36,331 nt of DNA from Acidimicrobiia bacterium (GCA_041621915.1 JBFJZV010000002.1:1-36331); one strand, 5' to 3'. Positions 9,786 to 33,422 are shown, numbered from the stretch's first letter. Program-made: numbers and translations. The notes: generated by a model from the sequence alone, not told the origin.

Positions 9786-11258
9786 ATGGATTACGCGGCC
9801 CGCCGCGTGCGACGCCGTCGGCTCGCGACCGCGGCCTGCATCGCCCTGGCCTCGATGGTCCCGGTCGCGACCGCGCCTGGGGCGACCGCACGGGCCGCCG
9901 GTGAGGGATGCCCCTCCGGGCCGGTGGCGTTCACCTTCGACGACGGTCCGGTGCCCGGACGGACCGATCGGGTGCTCGACGTGCTGGCTTCGTACCAGGT
10001 GCGAGCCACGTTCTTCGTCAACGGGCACAACTTCGACCGCGACCCGAAGGTCGTGCAGCGCATTGCGGCGGAAGGCCATGTGATCGCCAACCACACGTGG
10101 GGCCATACCCAGCTCGCCCGGGCCGCCGATGCAACGATCCGGCGTGAGGTGCTCCGCAACGTCGAGTCTGCCGAGGCAGCGGGGGTCACCATGGTGCCGT
10201 TGGTGCGGCCGCCCGGCGGATCGACCAGCGCCCGGGTCGAAGCCGTGCTCCGCGATCTCGGCATGACGCAGGTCATGTGGACGGTCGACCCTCAGGACTG
10301 GCGGGGCCACTCGGCGTCCACACTCGTCGGCCACGTACTGCCCCGCCTGTACTCGGGCGCCAACGTGCTGTTCCACGACGCCAGCCCGGCGAGCCAGGTG
10401 GCGCAGGCTCTCCCGGCGATCCTGACCGCCATGGCCGAGCGGGGCTTCTGCCCCGGCCTGTTCGACGCCGACGGGGTGGTTGTGCCTGCCGCCCATCTCG
10501 AGCCCGTACCCGTCGACCCGGGACCGGCATGTGTGGGGCCGGCGCCTTGCGACACGCTCGGGTTCATCGACGCCGCAGCCCGCTGGCAGGTGTTCGACGG
10601 GTTCGCTCAGGGCGCCGAGGCCCACACGTTCACCTTCGGGAACCCGGGCGATCGGCCGTTGGCAGGCGACTGGGACTGCGACGGGGTCGAGACCCCGGGC
10701 GTGTACCGGCCCTCCACCGGCCAGGTGCACCTGCGGAACTCCCTCTCGCCGGGCACCGCCGACCTCTCGTTCACGTTCGGCGACCCGGGCGACGTGCTGC
10801 TCGCCGGCGACTGGGACGGCGACGGCTGTGACACGCTCGCCGCATACCGCAGGTCGGAAGCCCGCATGTATGTCACCGACCGCCTCGGGGCCGGCTCGGC
10901 CGAGACGGTGTTCACGTTCGGCGACCCGGGCGACGTGCCGTTCGTGGGTGACTTCGACGGCGACGGGCGAACCGATCTCGCTCTCCACCGCCCGACCACC
11001 GGGCTGATCGCCTGGCGACTCGAGCAGCGGGCCGGTCCCGCCGACGGCGGGTTCACCTACGGGAACCCCGGCGACCGGGTCGTGGCGGGCGACTGGGACG
11101 GCGACGGGATCGACACGCCGGCCGCCTACCGGCCCTCGACCGGCGTCTGGTACGCCAAGCTGACCAACACGGGCGGCGCAGCCGATCACACCGTGCGTCT
11201 TGCGGCGCCGGCGGCGGTCACGTTCGTGGTCGGGGCGTTCGGCTTGCCGCCGGGCTGA
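9786..11258 (+). CDS. secreted polysaccharide deacetylase (CE4/NodB domain) with C-terminal FG-GAP/VCBS-like 'GDWDGDG' repeat module
   Basis: AGGGGAG (9771-9777) lies 8 nt upstream of ATG 9786. A signal peptide is present. NodB motifs are FTFDDGP, NHTWGH and RPPGG. From about 10560 there are four repeats of F-x-FG-x-PGD-x4-GDWDGDG-x-DT-x3-YR, ending in VGAFGL. Confidence 0.9.
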   Translation: MDYAARRVRRRRLATAACIALASMVPVATAPGATARAAGEGCPSGPVAFTFDDGPVPGRTDRVLDVLASYQVRATFFVNGHNFDRDPKVVQRIAAEGHVIANHTWGHTQLARAADATIRREVLRNVESAEAAGVTMVPLVRPPGGSTSARVEAVLRDLGMTQVMWTVDPQDWRGHSASTLVGHVLPRLYSGANVLFHDASPASQVAQALPAILTAMAERGFCPGLFDADGVVVPAAHLEPVPVDPGPACVGPAPCDTLGFIDAAARWQVFDGFAQGAEAHTFTFGNPGDRPLAGDWDCDGVETPGVYRPSTGQVHLRNSLSPGTADLSFTFGDPGDVLLAGDWDGDGCDTLAAYRRSEARMYVTDRLGAGSAETVFTFGDPGDVPFVGDFDGDGRTDLALHRPTTGLIAWRLEQRAGPADGGFTYGNPGDRVVAGDWDGDGIDTPAAYRPSTGVWYAKLTNTGGAADHTVRLAAPAAVTFVVGAFGLPPG

Positions 11259-11293
11259 TGCGGTAACCGCAGGCCGCGCCTACGCTTGAGGCG

Positions 11294-12748
11294 ATGGGAC
11301 TTCGACCGGCGGAAGCGAGGAGCCGGCGCAAGAGGGCGGGGGCGATCGCGGTGCTGGTGGCTGTGATGCTGCTTGCAGCGCCGCCGGCCCTCGCGGCGTC
11401 GGACATCGGCCTCGTCGATCCCGCCGACGGTCGCTGGCACCTCAGGGACGCCGGCACCGGGCTCGTGACGAGCTTCTTCTACGGCGACCCGGGGGACGTG
11501 CCGTTCACGGGCGACTGGGACTGCGACGGGGTCGACACCCCCGGGCTCTTCCGACCGTCGGACGCCTTCGCGTACCTCCGCGACGCCAACTCGACGGGCA
11601 TCGCCGGCATCCGCTTCTTCTTCGGGAACCCGTCCGACGTGCCGCTGGCCGGTGACTTCGACGGCGACGGCTGCGACACGGTCTCGCTGTACCGGCCGGC
11701 CGAACAGCGGTTCTACATCGTCAACGAGCTAGGCAGCGACGACGGCGGCCTGGGCGCCGCCGACTACACCTTCGACTTCGGCAACCCGGGCGACACGCCG
11801 TTCGTTGGCGACTTCGACGGTGACGGCGTCGACGAGGTCGGTCTCCACCGGCAGTCGACCGGCCTCGTCTACTTCGAGGACGCGCTGACGCCCAACGCGG
11901 GCGGCGGCGCCGCGGACCACGAGTTCATCTTCGGGGACCCCGGCGACCGCTTCGTCGCCGGCGACTGGACCGGCGCCGGGAACTCGACGCCGGCGGTGTT
12001 CCGGCCCACCGACTGCACCTTCTACCTCAAGCACGCCAACTCGCTCGGCGTCGCCGACGACACCGTCGCTTTCGGCGAGCCCGCCTGGCTGCCGGTCGCC
12101 GGCGATTTCGGCCTCACCGGGGGCGCCCCGCCCGGCCCGCCATGCCCGCAGCCGCCCGCTGCGTTCTCGGCGACCTACCGGCTGACGTTCACGTCCACGT
12201 GGAGCGCCGCCACCCATCCGGTCAGCTTCCCGGCCGTCCCGCACTTCTCGGGACTCATCGGCGGCGCCCACGACGCCCGGGTCAGCTTCTGGGAGTCGGG
12301 CGGGCAGGCCAGCCAGGGCATCGAGGACATGGCGGAGCTGGGCTCCAAGACGGCGCTCCGGGCGGAGGTCGAGGCGGCCATCGCAGCCGGCACGGCCCGC
12401 TCCGTGATCTCGGGCGGCGGCATCGGGCTGTCGCCAGGCTCGGTCGCCGTCACCTTCACGGTCGATCGCGACCACCCGCTCGCCACCGTCGTCGCGATGC
12501 TCGCCCCGAGCCCCGACTGGTTCGTCGGCGTGTCCGGGCTGGATCTCTTCGAGGGCGGCACCTGGGCCGAGCGCAAAGTGGTGACGCTCTACGGCTACGA
12601 CGCCGGCACCGACAGCGGTCCCAGCTACGGGTCGCCCGACGCCGACACCGACCCGGCGGAGCCGATCGCCCGGCTCGACACCCCGCCGGTGGGCAACGGC
12701 GCCCCGGTGGGCGAGTACGTCTTCGAGCTGGTATCGGTAGGTCCCTGA
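11294..12748 (+). CDS. secreted repeat-module protein with C-terminal spondin_N domain
   Basis: The signal peptide ends in ALAAS. Five FGxPGD..GD(W/F)DGDG repeats span about 11400-12115. After a PPGPPCPQPP linker comes a spondin_N-like domain (YRLTFTSTWSAATHP..HFSGLIGGAH..AELGS..MLAPSPDWFVGV..GYDAGTDSGPSYGSPD). Confidence 0.9.
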   Translation: MGLRPAEARSRRKRAGAIAVLVAVMLLAAPPALAASDIGLVDPADGRWHLRDAGTGLVTSFFYGDPGDVPFTGDWDCDGVDTPGLFRPSDAFAYLRDANSTGIAGIRFFFGNPSDVPLAGDFDGDGCDTVSLYRPAEQRFYIVNELGSDDGGLGAADYTFDFGNPGDTPFVGDFDGDGVDEVGLHRQSTGLVYFEDALTPNAGGGAADHEFIFGDPGDRFVAGDWTGAGNSTPAVFRPTDCTFYLKHANSLGVADDTVAFGEPAWLPVAGDFGLTGGAPPGPPCPQPPAAFSATYRLTFTSTWSAATHPVSFPAVPHFSGLIGGAHDARVSFWESGGQASQGIEDMAELGSKTALRAEVEAAIAAGTARSVISGGGIGLSPGSVAVTFTVDRDHPLATVVAMLAPSPDWFVGVSGLDLFEGGTWAERKVVTLYGYDAGTDSGPSYGSPDADTDPAEPIARLDTPPVGNGAPVGEYVFELVSVGP

Positions 12749-12767
12749 CCAGGCGGCGGCGCCGGGC

Positions 12768-13208
12768 TCAGCCCACGGGCTCGATGTCGAATCGGGCCAT
12801 GATCGACATCACGCGTTCCATGTCGGGCTCGCCGGGCCCGAGTTCCGCCAGCGCCGCCACGAACGCGGCGATGCCGGGTGCCGGCCACTGCCATGCCAGC
12901 ACCCGGGCCGGTTCGGTGCCGTGGTTGGTGAACCCGTGGGCTACCCCCCTCCCGGCGTAGGCGACGGTGCCTGCCGCCACCTTGTGCTCGTCGTCGCCGA
13001 TCGTGGCGGTCAGCTCGCCCGACAGCACGTAGAACGCCTCGTCGCTGTTGCGGTGGATGTGCTCGGGGAAGGGGTTGCCCGGCAGGAAGTCGACCTCGAT
13101 GACGTCGATCGACCCGCCGGTGTCGTCGCTCCCGACGCGCAGCAGCACTGGCGTGCCGAGCACGTCGAACGCCGAACCTTCGCCGGGAAGTGCCAGGAAC
13201 CCGCTCAT
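12768..13208 (-). CDS. cupin domain protein
   Basis: 146 aa, with GAGGAGG upstream of the ATG. The cupin motifs are PEHIHRNSDEAFYVLSGE and GVAHGFTN. Confidence 0.8.
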   Translation of the reverse strand: MSGFLALPGEGSAFDVLGTPVLLRVGSDDTGGSIDVIEVDFLPGNPFPEHIHRNSDEAFYVLSGELTATIGDDEHKVAAGTVAYAGRGVAHGFTNHGTEPARVLAWQWPAPGIAAFVAALAELGPGEPDMERVMSIMARFDIEPVG

Positions 13209-13263
13209 GGGGGCCTCCTCAGCTCGGGCGCCGGAGCGGCGCCGCTCGACGCGATGCTACGCC

Positions 13264-16309: not shown

Positions 16310-16330
16310 GTCTCCTCCTCCGTGCGGCCA

Positions 16331-16391: not shown

Positions 16392-16398
16392 GCGATTC

Positions 16399-17010: not shown

Positions 17011-17020
17011 CCGGCGCCCC

Positions 17021-18664: not shown

Positions 18665-18738
18665 CGTGCCCTCCTCCTGGCCTCTGCCGCGATGTCTACC
18701 AGCCCGGGGGCCGGCCGTGTAGTAGGTTTTTGCGGCTC

Positions 18739-19938
18739 ATGCCCGCCGGACGCCTGACCATCTCTCTGCTCGCCGCCGCCATGCTGTGGCTGCTGCCCAC
18801 CGCCGTCGCCCATGCCGACGATTCGCCCGCCGGGATCGGCGTGGTCGACCCGGCAACCGGCACCTGGTACCTGCGCGACCCGGGGTCGGGCGCGACCACG
18901 TCGTTCTACTTCGGCAACCCGGCGGACGAGCCGTTCATGGGCGACTGGGACTGCGACGGCGTGGGCACGCCCGGGCTCTACCGCAAAGCCGACGGCTACG
19001 TCTACCTGCGCAACTCCAACACCCAGGGCATCGCCGACGTGTCCTTCTTCTTCGGCGACCCAGGCGACCAGCCGATCCCGGGCGACTTCGATGGAGACGG
19101 CTGCGACACCGTGTCGATCTACCGGCCCGCTGAGTCGCGGTTCTACGTGATCAACCGGCTGGGATCGGCCGACGCCGGCTTGGGAGCAGCCGACACGTCC
19201 TACCGCTTCGGCGATCCGGGTGACCAGCCGTTCAGCGGCGACTTCGACGGCGATGGTGTCGACACCGTGGGCGTGTTCCGGGCCGGCACCGCGTTCCTGC
19301 GTACTCCGAGCGGGGCGCCGCAGCGGGTGACGTTCGGCGGCGCCGGGGACGTCGCGCTGGCGGGCGCCTGGAGCGGGAGCGCCGACCTGCTGGCCGTCCA
19401 CCGGGCGGGCGTGTTCGCGTTGGGCGACGGACTCGGCGGCACCAGCGCCACCGTCGAGTACGGCCGGGAGTCCCAGCGTCCGATCGCCGGCCGGTTCGGG
19501 CCGCTGCCCGGGGGCGACGCCCCGCCGCCGGTGGCGCCGCCGTACCCCGACGTCGGTTCCGGCAAGCGGATCATCTACTCCAACACCGAGCAGCGGGTGT
19601 GGCTGATCGAAGCCGACGGCACGCTGGTGAAGACGCACGCGGTGTCCGGCCGGGCCGGGGTGCCCGCACCGGGCACGTATGCGGTGTTCTCGAAGTCGGT
19701 GAAGGCCTACGCCGCGTACGGCGGCATCACGATGACCCATATGGTCCGGTTCGCCCACGGGCGCCGGCTGCCCTACGGGTTCCACTCGATCCCGGTGTAC
19801 CCCGACGGCCGGCCTCTGCAGCTCGAGTCGGAGCTGGGCACCTACCAGAGCGCCGGCTGCGTCCGCCAGCAGATGGACGACGCCATCTTCCTCTACGACT
19901 GGGCCGACGTCGGCACCACGGTGCACGCCCTGCCGTAG
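18739..19938 (+). CDS. secreted repeat-module protein with C-terminal L,D-transpeptidase (YkuD) catalytic domain
   Basis: ATG at 18739. The signal peptide is LLAAAMLWLLPTAVAHA. Five FGxPGD..GD(W/F)DGDG repeats, the last two degenerate, run to about 19500. The YkuD motif follows: GFHSIPVYP..LGTYQSAGCVRQ. Confidence 0.9.
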   Translation: MPAGRLTISLLAAAMLWLLPTAVAHADDSPAGIGVVDPATGTWYLRDPGSGATTSFYFGNPADEPFMGDWDCDGVGTPGLYRKADGYVYLRNSNTQGIADVSFFFGDPGDQPIPGDFDGDGCDTVSIYRPAESRFYVINRLGSADAGLGAADTSYRFGDPGDQPFSGDFDGDGVDTVGVFRAGTAFLRTPSGAPQRVTFGGAGDVALAGAWSGSADLLAVHRAGVFALGDGLGGTSATVEYGRESQRPIAGRFGPLPGGDAPPPVAPPYPDVGSGKRIIYSNTEQRVWLIEADGTLVKTHAVSGRAGVPAPGTYAVFSKSVKAYAAYGGITMTHMVRFAHGRRLPYGFHSIPVYPDGRPLQLESELGTYQSAGCVRQQMDDAIFLYDWADVGTTVHALP

Positions 19939-20569: not shown

Positions 20570-20652
20570 AGAGGGCAAGGTAGCGCGGTCGGGTCCTCGT
20601 CCTCCGTCGCTTGGGACCAAGGTCTCTGCTCTCAGGGCAGGCGATGCCGATA

Positions 20653-20674
20653 GCTTGTGAAATGAATCACAAGC
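20653..20674. promoter_or_regulatory. perfect 8-bp inverted repeat (GCTTGTGA-N6-TCACAAGC) in a divergent intergenic region
   Basis: Read directly: 20653-20660 GCTTGTGA, a 6-nt spacer AATGAA, then 20667-20674 TCACAAGC. The patch is locally AT-rich and lies 30 nt upstream of ATG 20704. Confidence 0.3.
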
Positions 20675-20703
20675 AATGCGGAGCCACAAGGAGGCACCAC
20701 GAA

Positions 20704-21402
20704 ATGACGAAGCGATTCCAAGCCGTCGGCGTCATCTTCGTCGTCCTCGGGGTCGTGTTCCTGGCGATCGGTACGGTCGCCTGGATGCGGACCTCGGACG
20801 GCGCAGAGGCGCTGGACAAGTTCAGCGAGGCGCAGAACGTCACGCTGAGCTACAACGAGGACGGCCAGCTGACCGACCGGGGCACCACCGAGGGCGCCGA
20901 GGCGATCCTGACGCTGCTCGAGGACGATTGGGGCTACCCGGTGGACCGGGGCGCACTCGATCCTGCTGACCCGCTGGTCAACACGGCCACCGAGTACATG
21001 TTCCAGATGGCCACCATCGGCTACCACGTGCTGCACGGCACGCAGACGGTGGTGCTCGCCGAGGACGTCGAGTACAACGGGGAGCTGTTCCCGGCCGGCA
21101 CGTACGAGTTCGAGGTCGACGGCCGCTACTGGACCGACTTCGACCGCCAGCACCCGATCGAGGGCCCGGCTCGCAGCCAGGCGTGGAGCGGGACCGTCCA
21201 CGGCCTGTTCGGCGAGCTCGGCGTCGGCGTCGTCACCTGGACCACGCTCCAGGTGGGCTACACCCTCGCCGGCCTCTTCGCAGCCCTCGGGTTCGTGTCG
21301 CTGCTCGCCGGCGGCGGGCTGATCTGGGCCGTTCGCGGCAAGGACGAGGAGCTCGCCCCCGCAGTGCCCGACACCGTGCCCCAAGACCTGATGGTCCGAT
21401 AG
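20704..21402 (+). CDS. hypothetical membrane protein with N- and C-terminal TM helices
   Basis: AAGGAGG (20688-94) lies upstream of ATG 20704. TM1 is AVGVIFVVLGVVFLAIGTVAW. It is followed by a roughly 170-aa soluble domain and C-terminal hydrophobic segments (LAGLFAALGFVSLLAGGGLIWAV). Confidence 0.7.
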   Translation: MTKRFQAVGVIFVVLGVVFLAIGTVAWMRTSDGAEALDKFSEAQNVTLSYNEDGQLTDRGTTEGAEAILTLLEDDWGYPVDRGALDPADPLVNTATEYMFQMATIGYHVLHGTQTVVLAEDVEYNGELFPAGTYEFEVDGRYWTDFDRQHPIEGPARSQAWSGTVHGLFGELGVGVVTWTTLQVGYTLAGLFAALGFVSLLAGGGLIWAVRGKDEELAPAVPDTVPQDLMVR

Positions 21403-22438: not shown

Positions 22439-22459
22439 GTGAGGCGGTTCGTCCCTCAC
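22439..22459. terminator. hairpin between convergent genes
   Basis: GTGAGG (22439-44) pairs with CCTCAC (22454-59) around a 9-nt loop. It spans the stop codon of the minus-strand lipoprotein gene. Confidence 0.3.
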
Positions 22460-23262
22460 ACGCAGAGCCCGTCCACGACGCCCCGGAAGCAGAACGCGGT
22501 CTCCTCGACGCTGTGGAGCGAGAAGCTCTGGCGGTCGTCACTGGGCCGGCCGAACACGTGCAGCCGGGCGCCGCTCACCGAGTCGTCGCCGAAGCCCACG
22601 ACGTCGTAGGTCACCTCGCCGAGGTCGTGCTCACCCCGGGGCGCCGCGACCAGCACGGCCTTCGCCGAGTCGTCGCCGAAGGTGACGGCGTCGGCCACGA
22701 GGAGGCCGAGCTCATCCAGCGTCGGGGCGGTAGGCCGCTCGCCGAGGAGCTGGATCACCGCCGCAGTCGAGTCGACGGTGGCGCCCAGGCGGGACAGGAA
22801 CCGCAGGTTGGCCCAGCCCACCGTGCCGCCGGCGTCCACCTCGACCCAGATGGCGCCGGCGTCGAGCCGGCGGGCTCGGCCGGTGGCCACCACGTCGGTT
22901 GCGAGGGGGCCGAGCCGGTCGGCGATCTCGTGGTCGACCCCCGGGCCGCGGCGCACGTTGAGCACGTCGTCGTGGGCGACGCCGACGACGGCGAGGCGGG
23001 CACCCCGCTCCGGCCCGAGCTCGAACGGCTCGCCGGGCAGGCCCGGCGCCTGGGTGGCGGGAGGCGCCAGGGTCGTGGGAGGCGCTTGGGTCGCCGGCGG
23101 CGCCTGCGTGGTGGGGGGTGCAGGAGCGGTGGGGTCGGGAGCGGCTTGCGTCGTGGGCGGCGCCTGGGTGGTCGGGTCGGGAGTAGCGGCCTGATCGGTG
23201 TCGCCGCAGGCGACGGCGAGCGCGGCAACCACCGCCAGGATGGCAATCAGTCGGAGTCGCAT
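22456..23262 (-). CDS. lipoprotein with Pro/Thr/Gln-rich linker and SH3-like domain
   Basis: AAAGGTGAGG lies upstream of ATG 23262. The lipobox is ALAVAC. The linker has PPTTQAP-type repeats. The segment VLNVRRGPGVDHEIADRL..IWVEV..GWANLRFL resembles bacterial SH3 domains. Confidence 0.7.
   Translation of the reverse strand: MRLRLIAILAVVAALAVACGDTDQAATPDPTTQAPPTTQAAPDPTAPAPPTTQAPPATQAPPTTLAPPATQAPGLPGEPFELGPERGARLAVVGVAHDDVLNVRRGPGVDHEIADRLGPLATDVVATGRARRLDAGAIWVEVDAGGTVGWANLRFLSRLGATVDSTAAVIQLLGERPTAPTLDELGLLVADAVTFGDDSAKAVLVAAPRGEHDLGEVTYDVVGFGDDSVSGARLHVFGRPSDDRQSFSLHSVEETAFCFRGVVDGLCV
23044..23181 (-). repeat. degenerate tandem coding repeat (PPTTQAP / PPATQAP units)
   Basis: The peptide PDPTTQAPPTTQAAPDPTAPAPPTTQAPPATQAPPTTLAPPATQAP is encoded by reiterated ggcgcctgggtgg-like units on the + strand. 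Confidence 0.7.
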
Positions 23263-23393
23263 GGTCCTCACCTTTCGCGGGTTGCGGGTGGCTTCTCCCA
23301 TAGGCAACCGCGGCGAGGTCACACCGCCCTCACCGCCGTGCAACGGTTGCGTTACGAGCGACGACCGGCCGCGGCCGGGTAGCGTCGGGGGCC

Positions 23394-24422
23394 ATGGCCG
23401 CATTGACCGTCCTCGACGAGGGCCGCCCGACAGAGGTGGAGTTCGCCCTGGCCGACGGCGTCGTCCGCATCCTTCGGTCGATGGTCGAGGCTGCGGTGGG
23501 CTGGCGGCTCGAGGATCGGGGCCTGTGCCGCGGCGACATCTGCATCCCCGTGCGCGACCCGGCGCTGGTCACCGCGGATGGGGTCTCGCTGCCGGGACTG
23601 GCCGCAGCCCTCCACCGGCCGCTGGCGCTCGACACCGACGAGCGGGCCGCCTACCTCGGGCCGTCCGCGGCCGACCGGGCGCCGCTGGCCGCCGGGTCGC
23701 CGGCGCCGCCGTTCTCGCTGCCCGATCTCGACGGGAGGCTCCACTCGCTGGCCGATCACCGCGGGTCCAAGGTGCTGCTGGCCGCCTGGGCGTCGTGGTG
23801 AGGATGCCGCTACGACCTGCCCGGGTGGCAGGAGATCCATGAGGAGCTGGCGGGGCTGATGGTCATCACGGTCGCCCTTGACCGGGCCGCCGACGCCCGC
23901 CGCTGGATCGAGCGGGCCGAGCCGACCCACCCCAGCCTCGTCGACGAGGGCCACGTCCTGGCGGACCGCTACCACATGGTCAACGTGCCCACCGTGGTGT
24001 GGATCGACGAGGACGGCCGGATCGCCCGTCCCAACGACGTGGCGTTCACCACCGAACAGGGCGGCAAGTACGCTGGGGTGTCGACCGCCGACCAGATGGC
24101 GCTGCTGCGCCGGTGGGTGGCGGGCGAGGCGCCACCCGCCGCCCCGGCCATGCCGGCGTCGGGGGCAGGGGGGCCGACGGCGGAGGCGGGGCTCGCCCGC
24201 GCCCACTTCGGCCTCGGCTGGTGGCTGTTCGAGCAGGGTCGGGGGGACGCCGCCAACCGCCACTTCTCCGTCGCCGGCGAGCTGGCGCCCGAGGACTTCA
24301 CCATCCGGCGGGGCACGATGCGCTTCCGCGGCGCCGACCCGTTCGGCCCCGAGTTCATGCAGATGGTCGCCGAGTGGCATGCGGGCGGGAATCGCTACTA
24401 CCTGCCGCTGCCCGTCGAGTAG
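23394..24422 (+). CDS. ResA/TlpA-like thioredoxin-fold protein with in-frame TGA at the active site (putative selenocysteine; motif W-A-S-W-U-G-C); alternatively a pseudogene
   Basis: Track ORFs 23394..23801 and 23859..24422 share one frame and are separated only by TGA 23799-23801. The joined product shows the redoxin layout: PAPPFSLPDLDG..GSKVLLAAWASW[TGA]GCRYDLP...VPTVVWIDEDGRIARP. GC3 is high on both sides of the TGA, and a hairpin follows it. Confidence 0.6.
23802..23838 (+). promoter_or_regulatory. candidate bacterial SECIS-like stem-loop immediately downstream of the in-frame TGA
   Basis: The lower helix is GGAT (23802-05) with ATCC (23835-38). The upper helix is CCTGCC (23816-21) with GGCAGG (23827-32). 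The apical loop is CGGGU (23822-26). The upper stem starts 14 nt after the TGA. Confidence 0.4.
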
Positions 24423-24430
24423 CCGCGCAG

Positions 24431-26155
24431 GTGCGCATCGTCGGTATATCGGCGTTCTTCCATGAGTCGGCGGCGAGCCTGCTCGTCGACGGGGAGCTGG
24501 TGGCGGCCGCCGCCGAGGAGCGCTTCACGCGGGTGAAGCACGACTCGCGGCTGCCCGTCAACGCCTACCGCTACTGCCTCGAAGCGGCCGGCCTGGGACC
24601 CGGCGACGTCGACGCCGTGGCGTTCTACGAGGACCCGGCGAAGAAGGCCGAGCGCCAGCACGCCCACGGCTTCACCGCACCACCGGGCCAACCGGACGCC
24701 CTCCACCCGGGCCGGCCCGAGCGGATGATCCGCGAGGTGCTCGGCCACGAGGGGACGATCCTCACCTTCGATCACCACCTCAGCCACGCCGCGAGCGCCT
24801 ACTTCTTCTCAGGGTTCGACGAGGCGGCGATCCTCACCGTGGACGGGGTGGGGGAGTGGGCGACGACGACCTACGGCACGGCGTACGGCGCCACGATCGA
24901 GCCGTTCGAGGAGGTTCGCTTCCCGCACTCGCTGGGCCTCTTCTATGCGACCGTCACGGCGTTCCTGGGGTTCCGGGTCAACGACGGCGAGTACAAGGTG
25001 ATGGGGCTCGCCCCGTACGGCGAGCCCCGCCTCGCCGACGCGTTGCGGTCCGTGGTGCGCTCCGGCCCGGGCGGGATGATCACCCTCGACATGGACCACT
25101 TCGACTTCGTCGACCGGATGTTCACCGACCGGCTGCCGGCGCTGCTCGGCGTGCCGCCCCGGGAGGAGGGGGCGCCTTTGGAGCATGCCCACGCCGACGT
25201 CGCCGCCAGCGCCCAACTCGTGCTCGAGGAGATCCTGCTCGAGAAAGCCCACCACCTCGCCGAGCGCACCGGTTCGGCGAACCTCTGTTACGCCGGCGGC
25301 GTCGCGCTGAACTGCGTCGCCAACGGGCGGCTGCTCCGGGAAGGGCCCTTCGCCCACCTCTTCGTCCCGCCTGCGGCCGGCGACGACGGCGGCAGCCTGG
25401 GCGCCGCGGCGCTCGCCCACGTCAGGCTCAGCGGCGAGCGGCCGGCAGCCAAGCCGATGACCCGCGCCGACCACGGCCCAGCCTACGACGCGGGCCGCGC
25501 CCTCGCAGGGAGCGGCCTCGCCGCCGAGCCCTACGTGCCGGATTCAGTGGCCGCCCGCCTCGAAGCGGGCCAGGTGATCGGGTGGTACTCGGGACGCATG
25601 GAGTTCGGCCCGCGTGCGCTGGGCCACCGCAGCATCCTCGCCGACCCCCGCGACCCGGGCATGCGGGAGCGACTCAACCGCCAGGTCAAGCGCCGCGAGG
25701 CGTTCCGTCCGTTCGCTCCCAGCGTGCTCGCCGGCCACGCGTCCGAGCACCTCGACCTCGACCATCCGTCGCCGTTCATGCTCGAGACGTGCCAGGTGCG
25801 GTCGCCGGTCGGCCTGCCGGCGGTCACCCACGTCGACGGGTCGTGCCGCCCCCAGACGGTCGATCCTGCCGTCGAGCCCCGTTACGCCGAGCTGCTCGCG
25901 GCGTTTCACCGCCGCACCGGCTGCCCGGTGCTGCTGAACACCTCGCTGAACGTTGCGGGAGAGCCGATCGCCTGCACACCCACCGACGCGTTGCTGACGA
26001 TGGCTGCAGCCGGGCTCGACGCGCTGGTTCTGGACGACGTCGTCGTCGAGAGGGCGGCGCTGCCGGCCGGCCTCCCCGAGCTCGTGGCGGCGTGGGACAC
26101 CGTGCCCCCGGCCGTGTTCGGCGCGGCGGCGCGCAACCTGTACTCGTTCGCATGA
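24431..26155 (+). CDS. carbamoyltransferase (NodU/CmcH family)
   Basis: GTG at 24431, 8 nt after the upstream stop. The N-terminus VRIVGISAFFHESAASLLVDGELVAAAAEERFTRVKHD is the family signature. The C-terminal domain carries RPFAPSV and HVDGSCRPQTV. Confidence 0.9.
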   Translation: MRIVGISAFFHESAASLLVDGELVAAAAEERFTRVKHDSRLPVNAYRYCLEAAGLGPGDVDAVAFYEDPAKKAERQHAHGFTAPPGQPDALHPGRPERMIREVLGHEGTILTFDHHLSHAASAYFFSGFDEAAILTVDGVGEWATTTYGTAYGATIEPFEEVRFPHSLGLFYATVTAFLGFRVNDGEYKVMGLAPYGEPRLADALRSVVRSGPGGMITLDMDHFDFVDRMFTDRLPALLGVPPREEGAPLEHAHADVAASAQLVLEEILLEKAHHLAERTGSANLCYAGGVALNCVANGRLLREGPFAHLFVPPAAGDDGGSLGAAALAHVRLSGERPAAKPMTRADHGPAYDAGRALAGSGLAAEPYVPDSVAARLEAGQVIGWYSGRMEFGPRALGHRSILADPRDPGMRERLNRQVKRREAFRPFAPSVLAGHASEHLDLDHPSPFMLETCQVRSPVGLPAVTHVDGSCRPQTVDPAVEPRYAELLAAFHRRTGCPVLLNTSLNVAGEPIACTPTDALLTMAAAGLDALVLDDVVVERAALPAGLPELVAAWDTVPPAVFGAAARNLYSFA

Positions 26156-27984
26156 GCGGCGTGGCCGTCTGGCGGCCATCGGAGGTCGACGGCGAGCCGG
26201 CGTTCGTCCGGCCGGCGCCGGCGCCGTTCGGCGATCACCATGCCGCCCGCCGGGTGATCCCGGCCGCCAAGGCGCCCGGGACGCAGCGGGTGTGCCTATT
26301 CGGCGAGTCCGCCGCCGCCGGCTACCTGTACGCGCCGCACCTCACCCCGGCGCAGGTGCTGGCGTCGCACCTGGGCGGCGGCTGGGAGGTCGTCGACCTG
26401 GCCCGCACGAACGAGACCCTCGCCGGGCTCGTCACCACAGCCACCGAGGCCGCCAGCCGCCTCGACCCCGACGTGCTGGTGGTGCTCACGGGCAACAACT
26501 GGAACCTGCTGGAGACGCCGGAAGTGTCTCCCTATTACCCGAGCGCCGCCGGGCGAGCCGAGTACGCGGCTGCGTTGCGAGAGGCGGGCCCGGCCGGTCC
26601 CATCGAGTTGGCCGGACGCCGCCGGCTGCGCAAGGCAGGAGACGCGCTGGCTCACCTGGCGTCGCTCGGTCTGCCGGTCGTGCTGGTGGTGCCGGACGTC
26701 AACGTCGCCGATTGGGAGGCGCGCCAGCCGCCCCCGTGGCTCCCCGGCGGCGCGACCCCGGCCTGGCACCGCCACTACGCGGCGGCCGCCGACGCGTTGG
26801 CGGCCGGGACGCCGGCCGTTGCCCGCGAGCACGCCGAGCGGATGATCGACCTCGACGGCGGCCTCACGCCCTCACCGTTCCGGTTCCTCGCCGCCGCCGG
26901 CGTTGCCGGCGCGGCGGCCGCGGAGGCAGCCGCGGACCACTACGCCACGATGTGCCTGCTCGGCGCCCCACGGGCCGCGCCGATCGACCAGGAGGTGCAG
27001 CGGCGGGCAGCCGGCCACCACGGTTTCCGGCTGGTCGACCTGCCTGCGCTCTTCGCGGGCCGCCACCTCTTCCTCGACTACTGCCACATGACGGCCGAGG
27101 GGATCGGCGTGGCCATGGCCGCCGTCGCCTCCGTAGTGCTGGGGCGGGGCGTGGGCCCGCGGGACCCGCGGCCGCCGCCCGCGGTGGAAGCCACCGCCCG
27201 GCTGGGGGCGGCCATCCACACCGCCCACCGGCACCTCCCGGTCGATCCGCGCAACGACACCGTCGCCGAGTGGCTCCGGCGGGCGCTGGCCGCCGACCCG
27301 GGAGTTGCTGCGGCCATGCTCGACGTGGCCGAGGCCAGGACCGCCCTCGTGCCCGAGGTGCTGACGCCGGCGCAGCAGCGCAACCTGGCGTCGCCCCATC
27401 GGCTCGGCTACCAGCACGGGTGGCGCTTCGACCACGTGGACGCCGTCCTGCTCGACGCCATGGCGGAAGTGCTCGGCGGGGAGGCCGAGGCGGCGCTGGC
27501 CCCGCGTGCCGCCGGGGCCGTTCCGGTGGAGCTGGTGGCGCCGCCGGATTACCTGTGGGAGCCCGCTTCCCGGTTCCATCCCGAGGTGGCGCCCTTCGCC
27601 GACGTGACCGTCCCGCCCTTCCTCCGATGCCCGTGGCCTTCGGTCTCCCTCGCGTTCGTGGCCGGCGGCGCAGTCGATCACGCAGTCGCGGTCACCGCCC
27701 GACTGCCGCGGCATGGCGCGCCAGGCGACGCGTCGATCACGGTCAACGGCATCGCCTTGGGCAGCACCGCCCTCGGCAGGCGATGGACCTCCTCGACCGT
27801 GCGGGTGCCGGGGGAGGTAGTGCGGCCCGGGCTCAACCGGCTCGACGTGGCCTGGCCGGAGCTGCCGCCGGTGGGCGACGCTGCGTTGGCCGATGTGGTC
27901 GACAGGCTGGGGCGAGGGCTGCCCGCCGACCTGCATCCGGTGTTCGGCGAGCTGTGGTCGGTGCGGGTGCGGCGAACGTCTTAG
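26152..27984 (+). CDS. SGNH/GDSL hydrolase-like protein with long C-terminal extension
   Basis: The start overlaps the carbamoyltransferase stop (ATGA at 26152-26155). Candidate block I is CLFGESAAAG, block III is LTGNNW and block V is LDYCHMT. The remaining roughly 350 aa have no family I recognise. The upstream part of track ORF 24856..27984 is a shadow frame. Confidence 0.65.
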   Translation: MSGVAVWRPSEVDGEPAFVRPAPAPFGDHHAARRVIPAAKAPGTQRVCLFGESAAAGYLYAPHLTPAQVLASHLGGGWEVVDLARTNETLAGLVTTATEAASRLDPDVLVVLTGNNWNLLETPEVSPYYPSAAGRAEYAAALREAGPAGPIELAGRRRLRKAGDALAHLASLGLPVVLVVPDVNVADWEARQPPPWLPGGATPAWHRHYAAAADALAAGTPAVAREHAERMIDLDGGLTPSPFRFLAAAGVAGAAAAEAAADHYATMCLLGAPRAAPIDQEVQRRAAGHHGFRLVDLPALFAGRHLFLDYCHMTAEGIGVAMAAVASVVLGRGVGPRDPRPPPAVEATARLGAAIHTAHRHLPVDPRNDTVAEWLRRALAADPGVAAAMLDVAEARTALVPEVLTPAQQRNLASPHRLGYQHGWRFDHVDAVLLDAMAEVLGGEAEAALAPRAAGAVPVELVAPPDYLWEPASRFHPEVAPFADVTVPPFLRCPWPSVSLAFVAGGAVDHAVAVTARLPRHGAPGDASITVNGIALGSTALGRRWTSSTVRVPGEVVRPGLNRLDVAWPELPPVGDAALADVVDRLGRGLPADLHPVFGELWSVRVRRTS

Positions 27985-28244: not shown

Positions 28245-28275
28245 GTCGCCGCTCCTCGGTGTCGGGGTCGGAAGG

Positions 28276-29916
28276 CTACCCGCAGTCGCCGGGCGCCTCG
28301 GTGCCCGCCGGGGCGCCGCCGGCCAGCGTCTCTGCGACCGCCGTGCGGATCTTCTCCACGTGCGGGCGGGGATGACCCATTCCGTCGTCGCCCGCCGCGT
28401 AGCGGGGTGCGGTGAGCGCGACCGTGGTGATGTCCTCGAAGCCGAGGCCGGCGGCGTGCCCGACGAGATCGGGGAGCACGTCGAGCGGGACGTTGGTGGA
28501 GGCCGACGACCGGATGGCGTCGGCGAGGCGCGGGAAGGAGCGAGCCAGCGTCAACGGGTCCGCGGCGGCCGCGACCGAGCGCACCATGCAACGTTGCCGC
28601 TGCATGCGGGCGTAGTCGCTGCTGGTCTTGCGATCCCGCACGTACGCCAGTGCCTCGCGGCCGTGCAGGTGGTGGCGACCGGGCGCCAGGTCGACCTTGA
28701 TCCACGGCTCGCCGGGGAACGCCGGCGACACTTCGGCACGCACCCGCTTGGTCACGGTGACGTCGACGCCGTGGAGCGCGTCCACGAGCTCGACGAAGCC
28801 ACCCATGTCGACCAGCACGTAGTAGTCGATCGGCAGCCCCAGCATGTGCTCGACGGTCGCCCGCAGCGCCTCCATCCCCGGGTCGGGGGCGTCGGGGAAC
28901 GTCCGAGTCCAGTTGAGCGTCTCTTTGCGGAGTGCGTTGAGGATGTCCGGGAAGCAGCGGCACGGGCCCCGCGGCACACCGGGGTTGGTGGCCCGGATCT
29001 GCCGCTCACGATCGGCGAACGCATCCCGGAAGGACGGCGGCAGCGGAACCCAGCCGAAATTGCGGGGGATGCCGAACACCACCGCGCGGTCGGTCGTCAG
29101 GTCGAGCGTCGCGACCATCATCGTGTCGGTGCGCAGCCCGCCGCGGCCGGGCCCGGCGTCGCCACCGGCGACCAGTACCGTGATGCGGTCGGGCAGCGGC
29201 GACGGGTCAACCGGCGCGAGCGGCGCGTCCTCCATCCTCGCTTCGCGGGGGACGATCTCGGGGCGAAGCGGGTCCAGGTCGGCCTCCGGGATGAGCCGGC
29301 GCGCTTCGGCGGCGCTGCCGGGCCCAGTCGGGGCGATCGTCGGCGGCGGAGCCGGGAGCGTCGCGACGGTGGCCGGCTGAGGCGCCGGGCCCTGGTAGGC
29401 GGCCAGGTCCACGTCGGGCGACAGGGTGGGCTCGTCTCCGACGAACACCGAATCGAGCAGCCGGATGGTATCGACCGTGTACGCCCCGGCGACCACATGC
29501 GGAGCGGCGATCACCGCCACCCCCGTCAGAAGCGCCATGGCACGCAGCGGAGCCCGGCCCGACCGCGCCCACGCCGCCAGGCGATACGCGTCGGCGGCTG
29601 CAACCAGCCGCAGCATTGCCACCGCGGCGTTGACGACCAGCAGTGCCCACAGCCAGCGTGGCTGAACGGCCAGGCGTGCGAGGTACACCGGGCCCCGGCT
29701 GGCCAGCGCCGCAGCGGCGCCCACTGTGGCGGCGGTCGGCAGCAGGAACCAGAGGGAGCGGAGCAGCCGCCCGGCATACATCTGGCCGGCGCCCGGCACG
29801 ATCGAGGACAGCACCCCGGCGAGCCACGCTCGCCGCCACGGCACCACCGCGGGCGCCGAGGCGACCCCCAAGGGGTCCGCGGCTGCGCCGGGGAGCGGGT
29901 GCTGGCTGACCGACAT
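28276..29916 (-). CDS. LytR-CpsA-Psr (LCP) family cell-wall glycopolymer ligase with N-terminal membrane region
   Basis: GAGGTGGG lies upstream of ATG 29916. N-terminal TM segments are present. The LCP core is LRTDTMMVATLD..VFGIPRN..DYYVLVDMGGFVELVDALHGVDV..LHGREALAYVRDRK..DYARMQRQ. Confidence 0.85.
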   Translation of the reverse strand: MSVSQHPLPGAAADPLGVASAPAVVPWRRAWLAGVLSSIVPGAGQMYAGRLLRSLWFLLPTAATVGAAAALASRGPVYLARLAVQPRWLWALLVVNAAVAMLRLVAAADAYRLAAWARSGRAPLRAMALLTGVAVIAAPHVVAGAYTVDTIRLLDSVFVGDEPTLSPDVDLAAYQGPAPQPATVATLPAPPPTIAPTGPGSAAEARRLIPEADLDPLRPEIVPREARMEDAPLAPVDPSPLPDRITVLVAGGDAGPGRGGLRTDTMMVATLDLTTDRAVVFGIPRNFGWVPLPPSFRDAFADRERQIRATNPGVPRGPCRCFPDILNALRKETLNWTRTFPDAPDPGMEALRATVEHMLGLPIDYYVLVDMGGFVELVDALHGVDVTVTKRVRAEVSPAFPGEPWIKVDLAPGRHHLHGREALAYVRDRKTSSDYARMQRQRCMVRSVAAAADPLTLARSFPRLADAIRSSASTNVPLDVLPDLVGHAAGLGFEDITTVALTAPRYAAGDDGMGHPRPHVEKIRTAVAETLAGGAPAGTEAPGDCG

Positions 29917-30171
29917 ACCCACCTCACGGCTCGAGTACGAGGACAACGGACCGCCGCCCACCCCGGTTCCGGCTGTTACCTACTTGTGACGTTCTCAACC
30001 TACGCGCGGTTCACCCGATCGGCGAGGGGAGGAAGGCCCGACGACGCCGGTGCGCCGCTGCGTTTCCATCATCGCCGCCGGGTCGGCGGACACGCCCCAC
30101 CGGAACGCCCCGTGCCGGATGTCAATGGCCGAGCAGCGCGCCGGCGGCGGCCGCGGCGGCGCGCCACGAGC

Positions 30172-31323
30172 TCATCGCACCCGGGACAGCTTCACCGGGG
30201 CCCGCTCCTTCGCCGAGATGAGCGCCGCTTCGAGCACACGTTGCGTCTCATAGGCGTCCGCGAAGTCGGGGAGCGGCACGACGGGCCTCCGGCGTGAGAT
30301 CGCCCGGACGGTGTCGGCGGCTTGGTTGACGAAGCCGTGCTCGTAGCCGAGACCGTGGCTCTCGGGCCACCAATGCCCGGCGTAGGGGTGGCCGTCCGCC
30401 TCCCGGGTCACGTCGACGGTCGTCCAGCCGGCGGTGCGGCCCTCGCCGGTGGCGTCGTACACGGCAAGCTCGTTCATCCGGGAGAAGTCGAAGCTGATGG
30501 CGCCACGCTCGCCGTGGACCTCGAGCCGGTTCCGGTTGCGGTACCCGGTGGCGAGGCGGGTCGCCTCGAAGCTCGCCACCGCGCCGCCTTTGAAGCGGGC
30601 GAGGAACAGCACGGCGTCGTCGACGGTGCTGCGGCCGGTGCGCTTCGGGTCGTCCGGCAGCGGCCGCTCCTTCACGAACGTCTCGGCGATGGCGCCGGTC
30701 ACCTCGGTGATCTCGTCGCCGGTGACGAAGCGGGCCATGTCGACGATGTGGGCGTTGAGGTCGCCGTGGGCGCCGGTACCGGCCTGGCCCTTGCGGAACC
30801 GCCACAGCAGCGGCGTCTCGGGCCCGCCCCAGCTCTGCAGGTACTGCGCCCGCACGTGGTAGATGCGCCCGAGGCGGCCCTCCCGGACGAGCTGGTGGGC
30901 GAAGGCCACCGCCGGCACCCGCCGGTAGTTGAACCATACGAATGTCTTGCCTGCGGCGGGGCGGGCGGCCTGCATCATCTCCCGGGCATGGTCGAGGGTG
31001 CCCGCCAGCGGCTTCTCGCAGGCGACGTGCTTGCCCGCCTCCAGCGCGGCGAGGGCCTGGTCGCGGTGGATGTGGTTTGGCGTGCCCACGTCGACCAGGT
31101 CGACGTCGTCCGCGGTGGCGGCTGCACGCCAGTCGGTGGTCCATCGCCCCCACCCCCACCGGGAGGCGAAGGCCTCGAGGTCGGCGGCCTCGCGGGCGGC
31201 GGCTACCTGCATGATCGGCTGGCGGGGCAGGTCGAAGAACTTACCGACCTTGAGCCACGCGTTGGAGTGGGCTCGGCCCATGAACTTGGACCCGATCAAG
31301 GCGATGCGGAGGGGCTTGGGCAT
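30172..31323 (-). CDS. Gfo/Idh/MocA family oxidoreductase
   Basis: The N-terminal Rossmann motif is LRIALIGSKFMGRAHSNAW, followed by the EKPLA motif (VACEKPLAG). Length is 383 aa. Confidence 0.9.
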   Translation of the reverse strand: MPKPLRIALIGSKFMGRAHSNAWLKVGKFFDLPRQPIMQVAAAREAADLEAFASRWGWGRWTTDWRAAATADDVDLVDVGTPNHIHRDQALAALEAGKHVACEKPLAGTLDHAREMMQAARPAAGKTFVWFNYRRVPAVAFAHQLVREGRLGRIYHVRAQYLQSWGGPETPLLWRFRKGQAGTGAHGDLNAHIVDMARFVTGDEITEVTGAIAETFVKERPLPDDPKRTGRSTVDDAVLFLARFKGGAVASFEATRLATGYRNRNRLEVHGERGAISFDFSRMNELAVYDATGEGRTAGWTTVDVTREADGHPYAGHWWPESHGLGYEHGFVNQAADTVRAISRRRPVVPLPDFADAYETQRVLEAALISAKERAPVKLSRVR

Positions 31324-31351
31324 GGCCGGAACCCTACCGGTGGCGGGGTTG

Positions 31352-32080
31352 TCAGCCGACGAGAGGCAGGTCGCGAGGCACGCCCAGCTCGGCGGGGTCG
31401 AGCGGTTCGCCCAGGGCCGGCGGCGTCATCGGCCCCGGGTCGGGGAGCGGCGTGAACCCGTAGTCGATCGCCGTCGTGCCGCTCTGGATGACGGCGCCTC
31501 CCTCGGTGCGGATCACGTAGCTGCGCAGCGCCCCGTCGGCGCCGATGACCCACGCCTGGATCAGCCGATCGCCCCGGTGCGGGCTGTCGATCACCCAGCG
31601 GACCTCGCCGGCGGCGCCGGTCTCCCTGGACGCAACGGTCTCGCCCGCGACGTCGGCTGCGGGGGAGATGTCGCCTGCGGCGATCTCGGCCAGGTTCAGG
31701 CTGAGCGGGATGCGCTCGGTCGGGTCCTCGTCTAGGCGCGCCCACGGCCGGTCGCCGTCGCCGCCGCGCTGCGCCGAGTACAGGTCGCTCCCGATCTGGA
31801 CGAGCCCGAAGACCGCGGCTTCGCTGCCCGGCTCCTGGATCCCGGCGGCCACGTAGCGGTAGTCGCCGCCGGCCCGGTAATCGACCCAGTCCGCCCGGGT
31901 GACGGTGCGCTCCTCGCCCGTCCGGACTGCGGTGGCGGTGATCCGCGGGGCGGCGAGCAGCGCCCGGGTGGCGGCTCGTACCTCGGCCTCCAGCTCGGGC
32001 AGCCGGGTGGGCTCGCCGGAGTCGCCGCAGCTCGCCAGGGCCAGCGCCGGCAGCAGCAGCGCCGCCATCAACGCCTTCAT
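31352..32080 (-). CDS. hypothetical lipoprotein
   Basis: The signal peptide plus lipobox is MKALMAALLLPALALASC. The start lies 7 nt downstream of the preceding gene's stop, so it appears to be the middle gene of a three-gene minus-strand operon. Confidence 0.7.
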   Translation of the reverse strand: MKALMAALLLPALALASCGDSGEPTRLPELEAEVRAATRALLAAPRITATAVRTGEERTVTRADWVDYRAGGDYRYVAAGIQEPGSEAAVFGLVQIGSDLYSAQRGGDGDRPWARLDEDPTERIPLSLNLAEIAAGDISPAADVAGETVASRETGAAGEVRWVIDSPHRGDRLIQAWVIGADGALRSYVIRTEGGAVIQSGTTAIDYGFTPLPDPGPMTPPALGEPLDPAELGVPRDLPLVG

Positions 32081-32087
32081 GCGGTGG

Positions 32088-32513
32088 TCATTCCCGGCGG
32101 CGGGCCAGCTCCTCCTCGAGGGCGGCCGTCGAGTACGCCATCAGCGCCGGGTCCCACGCTCGCGCCACGGGGAGGCACGCCTCGACGTCGAGCAGCTCGG
32201 CCACGGTGTCCCGCAGGGTGCGCGCCCAGGCGCGGCCGGTCGCCACGCCATGCATGCTGAGCGTGCCGTCGGCGTTGGCCAGGTAGGCCCGCGCCTCGAC
32301 CTGCGGGTTCGCCCGCGACCCCCGCTCCCCGTAGACCACCAGCACGCACGGGGCAGGCAGGTCCTGCACGCCGCCGGCCGCCACGAAGTCGCCCTCGTAC
32401 GCCCAGCCGCCGGTCTTCTCGACGTCGACGTTGGTGACGACCTTCGCCCAGTTCTTGCGGCGCTCGTCGCCGAGAAGGGGGATCTCAACGGGCGTGGTGG
32501 TTGCGGTATGCAC
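32088..32513 (-). CDS. hypothetical protein (about 141 aa)
   Basis: The 3' part of track ORF 32088..34097 has normal amino-acid composition and high GC3 (PLLGDERRKNWAKVVTNVDVEKTGGWAYEGDF..). The GTG start at 32513 is inferred. Upstream of it the frame is antisense to real plus-strand genes. Confidence 0.5.
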   Translation of the reverse strand: MHTATTTPVEIPLLGDERRKNWAKVVTNVDVEKTGGWAYEGDFVAAGGVQDLPAPCVLVVYGERGSRANPQVEARAYLANADGTLSMHGVATGRAWARTLRDTVAELLDVEACLPVARAWDPALMAYSTAALEEELARRRE

Positions 32514-32627
32514 GGCTGCCGGCACCCTACCGGCGGGGTATGACGCAGCCCGGCAATGCCGAGGCCACTGCAACCCGAGGCTCGCTGCGTGCGCTAGCTT
32601 TTCGCTCGGGCCAGGAAGGGAGTCCTG

Positions 32628-33422
32628 ATGCGCGCCGCAAGTGTTCGGGTGCTGGTGGCGATGGCCGTGGCGGTGGCCGCGTTGGCGGGTTGGGCGCCCG
32701 CCGCGGTGGCCGGCGACGAGGTCGGCCTCGTGGATGTCAACACCGGCCACTGGAGGCTGCAGACCGATGGCGGCGGCGTGGTCCGGTTCACGTACGGCAA
32801 CCCCGGCGACGTGCCCGTGGTGGGCGACTGGGACGGCGACGGCGACCAGACGGCCGGCATGTACCGGCAGTCCGACGGTTTCTTCTACGCCCGCAACTCC
32901 AACACGACGGGCATCGCCGACGTCGAGTGCTTCGCTGGAGACCCCGACGACGTAGCGATCGCCGGCGACTGGGACGGCGACGGCGACGACACCCTCGGCA
33001 TCTTCCGGCGGTCCGAGGGCAGGTTCTACCTCTTCAACAAGACCTGCGTCGGCGCCCCGATGGGCGCCGCCGAGATCGAGTTCCCCTTCGGGGACCTCGG
33101 TGACCTGCCGGTGGCCGGCGACTGGGACGGCGACGGCCGGGATGAGGTCGCGGTGCACCGGCCGCCGCACACGTTGTACTACCGCAACACGCTCGATGCG
33201 GGCCCGGCAGACGGCCAGTTCACGTTCGCGGACCCCGGCGACTGGTTCGTCGCGGGGGACTGGGGCCCGGTCGACGGCGTGGACACGCCGGCTATCTGGC
33301 GCATCCGACAGGGATGGTTCGACGTATGGCACACGCTCGCGCAGTCGGCGGAGCCGGACGAGCGGATCGACTTCTTCGTGCCCGGCACGCAGCGGCCGGT
33401 GGCGGGGGAGTTCGGCCTGTAG
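32628..33422 (+). CDS. secreted stand-alone FG-GAP/VCBS-like 'GDWDGDG' repeat-module protein
   Basis: GGAAGGGAG lies upstream of ATG 32628. The signal peptide ends in AAVAG. Five repeats run from VGLVDVNTGHWRL to the C-terminal PVAGEFGL, with no additional domain. Confidence 0.85.
   Translation: MRAASVRVLVAMAVAVAALAGWAPAAVAGDEVGLVDVNTGHWRLQTDGGGVVRFTYGNPGDVPVVGDWDGDGDQTAGMYRQSDGFFYARNSNTTGIADVECFAGDPDDVAIAGDWDGDGDDTLGIFRRSEGRFYLFNKTCVGAPMGAAEIEFPFGDLGDLPVAGDWDGDGRDEVAVHRPPHTLYYRNTLDAGPADGQFTFADPGDWFVAGDWGPVDGVDTPAIWRIRQGWFDVWHTLAQSAEPDERIDFFVPGTQRPVAGEFGL

Follow-up and report, generated by a model that had tools for sequence, protein, structure and literature searches.

The window analysed here, a stretch of 36,331 nucleotides from an Acidimicrobiia bacterium (GCA_041621915.1 JBFJZV010000002.1:1-36331), has a base composition of 69-76% G+C and encodes four proteins that share a repeat module of ∼235 residues, read in the present study as a five-bladed β-propeller. 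The corresponding open reading frames (ORFs), referred to as genes 1 to 4, all lie on the plus strand (9777/9786-11258, 11294-12748, 18631/18739-19938 and 32628-33422), and each shows a third-position G+C bias like that of real genes. ORF calls and translations place them where a preliminary description, made from the sequence alone, had put them, and Pfam bears out the three fused domains and the single stand-alone copy that it had named.

Gene 1 (9786-11258) encodes a signal peptide, a CE4 (NodB-type) polysaccharide/peptidoglycan deacetylase domain (Polysacc_deac_1, residues 45-163, E = 5e-33), a Pro-rich linker and a C-terminal module (10548-11255). In genes 2 and 3 the module is N-terminal. 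Gene 2 (11294-12748) carries a signal peptide, the module (11399-12124), a Pro/Gly linker and a Spondin_N domain (Pfam Spond_N, residues 293-463, E = 2e-46; NCBIfam NF038123, E = 1.3e-26), and gene 3 (18739-19938) a signal peptide, the module (18829-19515), a Pro-rich linker and a YkuD L,D-transpeptidase domain (residues 276-395, E = 2.4e-11). Gene 4 (32628-33422) consists of a signal peptide and the module only (32715-33419), Pfam reporting nothing besides the module. NCBIfam is concordant with Pfam for the CE4 and spondin domains. The CE4 motifs TFDDGP, HTWGH and RPPGG are readable in the gene 1 translation, as is the YkuD motif H...SAGCVR in that of gene 3, so both enzymes look active. The database cluster representative of the gene 3 protein (P0013, 399 residues) is 99.7% identical to it.

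The N-termini of the four translations are signal-peptide-like: positive charges at the start give way to a hydrophobic core, and an AxA-type site follows. The putative signal peptides, read from the translations with a slash at the presumed cleavage site, span 9786-9896 in gene 1 (Arg-rich n-region RRVRRRRL, hydrophobic core, ARA/AG; of Sec or Tat type), 11294-11395 in gene 2 (…AVMLLAAPPALA/AS), 18739-18816 in gene 3 (…LLPTAVAHA/DD) and 32628-32711 in gene 4 (…GWAPAAVA/GD).

The four modules align collinearly over ∼236 residues with 46-51% mutual identity and 61 invariant columns. A hidden Markov model (HMM) built from the module and run against the six-frame translation of the window finds exactly four copies, the number first described: gene 1 (HMM positions 1-239, E = 1e-113), gene 2 (E = 1.2e-122), gene 3 (E = 1.3e-110) and gene 4 (E = 7.6e-119). 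Each module contains five innermost-strand G-x-[WF] motifs spaced 42-52 residues apart, the first four running into a DxDxDG loop and the fifth forming the terminal xAGxFGL. Its layout is that of four full FGxPGD...GDWDGDGxDT...YR units, preceded by an N-terminal three-strand piece (IGLVDPxxGxWxLRD...) and followed by the C-terminal xAGxFGL strand. The collinear alignment and the five motifs agree with the repeat module first described; the conserved opening strand also stands in general, but in the CE4 copy a variant, LGFIDAAARWQVFD, takes its place.

The calcium-type loops are intact in 13 of 16 cases, with the pattern D-[WF]-D-[GC]-D-G-x-[DET]. All four are intact in gene 1, whereas the fourth is degenerate in genes 2 (GDWTGAGNST) and 3 (where blades 4-5 are degenerate and the fold is still predicted) and bears an insertion in gene 4. 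Comparison of blades gives 49% identity when position is matched between proteins, 38% for blades within one protein and 39% for different positions across proteins. Position-matched blades are thus the most alike, and it is the five-blade block, rather than the single repeat, that was inherited whole and forms the unit of inheritance.

Two cysteines, one in the loop after strand 1 of blade 2 and the other in the next loop, co-vary across 124 homologs: 108 have both, 13 (gene 4 included) have neither, and only 3 have one. Such covariation is typical of disulfide partners and agrees with an extracytoplasmic domain; the pair probably forms a disulfide that links the calcium loop of blade 2 to that of blade 3. 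By their sequence pattern the DxDxDG loops would bind calcium, and together with the Cys pair they point to an extracellular, calcium-stabilised domain. The four proteins look secreted, as first proposed, judging from their signal-peptide-like N-termini, the co-varying cysteines and the extracytoplasmic nature of the partner domains. A hydrophobic N-terminal segment is present in 157 of the 224 homologs that start with Met.

Structurally, AlphaFold2 returns a confident, all-β model of the gene 4 module (run with a 124-sequence alignment; predicted local distance difference test, pLDDT, 93.7; predicted template modelling score, pTM, 0.90), in line with the coherent repeat fold that had been expected. 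Its 20 strands are interpreted as five blades of four strands each, with consecutive strands joined in a hairpin at every DxDxDG loop (residues 39-46, 86-93 and so on). The degenerate gene 3 module (residues 1-235) also yields 20 strands, its blocks scoring mostly 88-97 in pLDDT and one block 82. When the full mature gene 3 protein is modelled, the YkuD half has low confidence because its alignment is shallow.

A blade would then run from strand 1 (xxGDW/F) through the eight-residue DxDxDG hairpin loop to strand 2 (TxGxYR) and strand 3 (FYLRN), and over a longer loop to strand 4 (xFxFG) and the FGxPGDxP loop. The chain would begin at strand 2 of blade 1 and finish with strand 1 of the same blade (xAGxFGL). 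In integrin-type propellers, the calcium loop connects strands 1 and 2 within one blade. This precedent, with a strand-2-type start and a strand-1-type end, suggests that the ring is closed by a C-terminal velcro strand (1+3). Of the closed five-bladed propeller with velcro envisaged in the preliminary description, the blade count follows from the reading of the strands and the propeller fold agrees with the structural matches given below; the closure itself fits the strand order and is best called probable.

Known family models reach the module only weakly. FG-GAP_3 (PF13517) stays below its gathering threshold of 26.9 bits in genes 1 (22.4 bits) and 4 (21.1 bits), as does FG-GAP (PF01839; 16.9 bits against 22.1), and genes 2 and 3 have no FG-GAP-type Pfam match at E ≤ 1. 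Only 6 of the 124 homologs match FG-GAP_3 at E < 1e-3, and NCBIfam has no model over the module. Neither Pfam nor NCBIfam assigns the module to an annotated family of known ligand. A profile of the module run against PDB sequences gives one significant match, 9oee_A (E = 1.5e-7), aligned through its GDFNGDGRDD repeats. A single-module search of the PDB had matched retinol-binding protein 3 alone, at a chance-level E-value of 0.09, and this candidate was discarded. In Foldseek, too, 9oee_A is the top match (E = 1e-5, TMq 0.56); other propellers come after it, among them PVL, PAL and AAL2, which are GlcNAc-binding lectins of integrin-like type, and the matrix protein Bap1. These results support the relationship to FG-GAP/VCBS repeats proposed at the outset, as a remote one: the Pfam matches are below threshold, but a propeller is matched significantly. 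The best explanation is that the module is an autonomous, secreted five-bladed β-propeller of ∼47 residues per blade, an unnamed branch of the FG-GAP/VCBS superfamily. Foldseek against viral structures returned none at E ≤ 1e-3, which gives no link to phage receptor-binding proteins, and tblastn against plasmids gave a single weak, unannotated and uninformative match in Kitasatospora. A full-text literature search with the module's loop motifs retrieved no papers, and one combining FG-GAP with cell-wall binding retrieved nothing relevant.

The structure 9oee, solved by cryo-electron microscopy, shows the umbrella-toxin lectin UmbA4 in complex with S. griseus teichuronic acid (PMC13274773). In the six-bladed UmbA4 propeller, canonical pockets between the blades bind the polymer, and UmbA propellers have been shown experimentally to be lectins for cell-wall glycopolymers (PMC13274773). 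A second line of evidence comes from Streptomyces sp. NPDC006512 (locus L037:1667-3085, +), which encodes a 473-residue protein in which a signal peptide precedes a trypsin domain (E = 7e-23) and then a five-blade module. The catalytic His and Ser of this trypsin are replaced (TAASC, GDTGGP). Its module is 41% identical to that of gene 4 (E = 6e-35) and starts and ends in the same register as the window modules. Since this is the UmbA architecture, the window module is, by sequence comparison, a homolog of a UmbA-type lectin domain.

The family is very large. A profile search of a 90%-clustered protein database gives at least 3,437 matches (best E = 1e-116), nearly all named 'hypothetical protein' and without a Pfam domain over the module. 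Scanned with HMMER, a set of 1.84 billion representatives clustered at 50% identity gives 30,529 clusters at E ≤ 1e-3, 22,795 at E ≤ 1e-10 and 10,305 at E ≤ 1e-30. Among the matches listed from species-representative genomes, the closest are metagenome-assembled genomes (MAGs) of Acidimicrobiia; more distant ones come from Georgenia, Actinotignum, Streptomyces, Lentzea, Actinoplanes and Virgisporangium, and also from Anaerolineae, Acidobacteriota, Planctomycetota and one clostridial MAG. In 265 homologs, many of them partial sequences, the module is C-terminal in 162, N-terminal in 53, alone in 45 and internal in 5. Some family members contain several modules in one protein. Separately, five giant proteins (P0122, 3432 residues; P0125, 3436 residues; P0121, P0123 and P0124) have 6-11 stretches matching the module profile, and are either tandem arrays of five-blade modules or longer propellers built from the same repeat.

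Pfam identifies 57 partner families in 90 proteins. Among them are PD40/TolB-like domains, active trypsin, M10, S8, M23, Amidase_2, YkuD, SNase and Metallophos; generic extracellular partners include Ig-like, cadherin-like, PKD, Calx-beta, LRR and NHL domains, with cupredoxin and C-type lectin besides. Distant members are joined to GH6, GH9+GH6, GH26, a beta-lactamase fold, CAP, DUF3152 or BNR_4. Cluster number and partner diversity together bear out the proposal of a lineage-expanded, shuffled module. Two cellulase-like architectures were seen: Actinoplanes sp. (L052:1054-4605, +) encodes CelD_N + GH9, the module and GH6 in that order, and Virgisporangium aurantiacum (L029:2278-4008, +) the module with GH6. 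The place of the module in these GH6/GH9 proteins resembles that of a carbohydrate-binding module.

Genomic context tempers the picture of four copies grouped with envelope genes inside 24 kb, a clustering that turns out to have been overstated. Genes 1 and 2 adjoin on the same strand, 35 bp apart, and are the only adjacent pair. Between the module genes, Pfam identifies cupin, PPDK-like, TetR, TPR, methyltransferase, EamA transporter, carbamoyltransferase, GDSL-like, LCP and GFO/IDH/MocA oxidoreductase genes and a weakly matched SH3-like secreted protein, and these unrelated housekeeping genes rule out a functional operon or island spanning all four. Recent local duplication is likewise ruled out, as the paralogs share 46-51% identity and have closer relatives outside this genome; the Spondin-linked copy of gene 2, for instance, reaches ∼69% identity with proteins of other metagenomes against ∼50% with its window neighbors. 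By this sequence comparison, the four module genes are old paralogs. Local clustering of paralogs recurs in the Acidimicrobiia lineage. Two or three module-bearing ORFs occur in 5 of the 51 loci fetched, and three Acidimicrobiia MAG loci (L015, 1711-6633; L001; L002) have two or three module genes adjoining within ∼6 kb, one example of such a side-by-side arrangement being a gene for a GH26-like domain with the module, followed by two more module genes.

Of the neighbors first named, the LCP gene (LytR_cpsA_psr, 28276-29961, −) and the GalU-like NTP_transferase gene (33456-34304, +) were recovered by Pfam, but a ceramidase-like gene was found in none of the ORFs scanned; that label may refer to the region 23999-27984. 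Orthologs of gene 4 (75-78% identical) occur in two other MAGs with the downstream NTP_transferase retained, the pair lying at 32628-34304 in the window, 6001-7694 in L083 and 1637-3342 in L084. An LCP gene stands 3-5 kb upstream of the stand-alone module gene in the window and in L083. This synteny is a weak hint at a link to wall-polymer assembly. A second module gene is present in L083, at 1201-2610.

Other features of the window were recorded in passing. A full-length serpin (3557-5140, −; Pfam Serpin, E = 1e-98) with a ∼150-residue N-terminal extension is encoded there, flanked by a radical-SAM RlmN-like gene on one side and a GNAT gene on the other; among bacteria, serpins are comparatively uncommon. 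The region 23999-27984 (+) holds a carbamoyltransferase (Carbam_trans_N and Carbam_trans_C, E ∼1e-65) and then, in another frame, a ∼610-residue ORF (26152-27984) with a weak GDSL/SGNH match only and a long C-terminal part without assignment; the two may form a polysaccharide or metabolite tailoring pair. A minus-strand ORF at 22456-23403 is a real gene by G+C phase and, from a weak SH3_3 match (E = 0.003), may encode another secreted wall-associated protein. ORFs with a coding-type third-position G+C signal and no Pfam match lie at 7772-9686 (both strands), 20611-21402 (+), 31352-32080 (−) and 34300-36060, strand and frame being ambiguous for 7772-8600 and 34300-36060.

With regard to function, the evidence leans, without great force, towards a portable, lectin-like five-bladed module that would hold enzymes on a cell-envelope glycopolymer. 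Pro/Gly linkers would connect it to many extracellular domains of catalytic or adhesive function, at either end of these, and in the CE4 deacetylase and YkuD transpeptidase it would take the place held elsewhere by LysM, SH3b or PG_binding. These two enzymes would most likely be the ones retained on the glycopolymer, and the stand-alone gene 4 product would be a soluble or wall-bound lectin. Glycan binding is suggested by the UmbA lectin propellers, by the carbohydrate-binding-module-like position in GH6/GH9 cellulases and by the peptidoglycan-enzyme partners. Binding to glycan or cell wall and delivery to a common envelope location, as first suggested, are our inference by analogy with these systems.

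Several points weigh against this lectin-like reading. The carbohydrate ligand of this branch is putative and follows from analogy, and secretion was judged by eye and by heuristics. Foldseek TM-scores to solved propellers are modest (∼0.4-0.56), because the solved propellers have 6-8 blades. Many partners are not carbohydrate-active (Ig-like, cadherin-like, PKD, LRR, NHL, Calx-beta, active trypsin, M10, Metallophos); with so many generic extracellular partners the module is not specific to cell-envelope enzymes, and it could be a general interaction or stabilising domain. Conservation is strong on all loops across the family, in contrast to the hypervariable pockets of the UmbA lectins. Finally, the LCP/NTP_transferase synteny is seen only in close relatives and may just reflect shared descent.

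A serious rival, albeit rated unlikely, takes up several of these points: the module would be no lectin but a calcium-stabilised scaffold or protein-protein platform of the integrin alpha, CRTAC1/ASPIC or WD40-like type, adding stability, oligomerisation or protein binding. The extreme variety of the partners, often unrelated to carbohydrates, is what such a platform would show, and conservation of every loop fits one conserved protein partner or a purely structural role. Foldseek also returns the protein-binding propellers KICSTOR, Cdh1/Cdc20, WIPI and EED; however, these WD40-type matches are weaker in E-value, at 9-17% identity, and the sole significant sequence relative with a structure is a lectin propeller. 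The homologous module at the lectin position of a UmbA-type protein and the module at the carbohydrate-binding-module position of GH6/GH9 cellulases also speak against a scaffold.

Improbable, in our estimate, is a module aimed outward, recognising the glycopolymers of other bacteria or environmental polysaccharides in weapons or scavenging enzymes, in parallel to the umbrella toxins. Homology to the UmbA-type lectin domain favors it, as do family fusions to lytic enzymes (M23, Amidase_2), a nuclease, proteases and glycoside hydrolases. An umbrella-toxin locus in the window is nevertheless ruled out. UmbA proteins bind UmbB through an inactive, trypsin-like N-terminal domain. Pfam finds no trypsin domain, inactive or otherwise, in the four window proteins and no toxin domain in the window. 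Neighboring ORFs scanned with Pfam have functions unrelated to umbB and umbC, and no ORF with a coding signal is long enough for the ALF-repeat toxin UmbC; Pfam may lack UmbB/ALF models, and this absence rests partly on gene sizes. The trypsin fusions of the close family retain the catalytic TAAHC and GDSGGP and hence are not UmbA-like. YkuD transpeptidases and CE4 deacetylases, moreover, normally act on the producer's own cell wall. An artefact of composition or low complexity, conceivable in a 72% G+C genome for a motif rich in G, D and P that recalls Gly/Asp-rich stretches, has a negligible chance of being right given the collinear 236-residue alignment, the thousands of database proteins matched, HMM matches in a single frame with the other five free of spurious ones, and the confident AlphaFold2 model.

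The lectin-like reading can be extended, though the extension is doubtful. The module would then be the main domain by which Acidimicrobiia and some other Actinomycetota retain proteins at the cell surface, a calcium-dependent lectin for a conserved secondary wall glycopolymer with a role like that of LysM, SLH or CWB2. It would organise much of the exoproteome (wall-remodelling enzymes, proteases, adhesins), and the stand-alone copy beside the LCP and GalU-like genes would act in polymer assembly or capping.

The module marks a gap in annotation and reveals neither a new mechanism nor a new system: it is an unnamed, very large branch of a known superfamily, and homologous propeller lectin domains were already described in umbrella toxins in 2024-2025. 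The at least 10,305 clusters at the strictest cutoff, mostly from uncultured Acidimicrobiia, are without annotation in Pfam and NCBIfam, and many secreted multidomain proteins are labelled 'hypothetical' as a result. A named model would better annotate the exoproteome of a lineage widespread in soil, freshwater and marine habitats and would tie it to the umbrella-toxin lectin domains, now experimentally tractable. The module is also a testable candidate for the positioning of wall-remodelling enzymes in the Gram-positive Acidimicrobiia.

Among known systems, the UmbA propellers are the closest: like the window module, they are secreted, actinobacterial and made of short repeats with GDxDGDGxD calcium-type loops. 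UmbA lectins fall into 5BP, 6BP and 7BP families, the five-bladed ones numbering 12 (PMC13274773), and one propeller repeat domain, 'UAL-beta-prop-1', present in 849 UmbA proteins, has no Pfam identifier (PMC11062931), as is the case for the window module. Unlike in UmbA, the window modules have CE4, Spondin_N or YkuD as fusion partners or occur by themselves. UmbA4 is built of six blades, each ∼58-60 residues long, where the window module has five of ∼47, and strong conservation of the module family stands in place of hypervariable pockets.

The wider FG-GAP/VCBS propellers, namely the integrin alpha N-terminal propeller and the fungal lectins PVL, PAL and AAL2, share with the module the FG motif before the innermost strand, the DxDxDG calcium-type hairpin between strands 1 and 2 and the propeller fold, but they have seven blades to its five, longer repeats and no conserved inter-loop Cys pair. 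Tachylectin-2 is a five-bladed, 236-residue lectin for GlcNAc/GalNAc with 47-residue repeats. It resembles the module in blade number, domain size and repeat length, and stands alone as gene 4 does; the likeness is one of size and geometry only, as Tachylectin-2 gave no PDB sequence match and is not among the top 50 Foldseek PDB matches. It is not known to have DxDxDG loops. LysM, SH3b, PG_binding_1, SLH and CWB2 have a completely different fold and no sequence relation to the module. They bind the cell wall, as the window module may do, and have an architectural role like its own, being portable, non-catalytic modules that linkers connect to amidases, M23 peptidases, L,D-transpeptidases and deacetylases.

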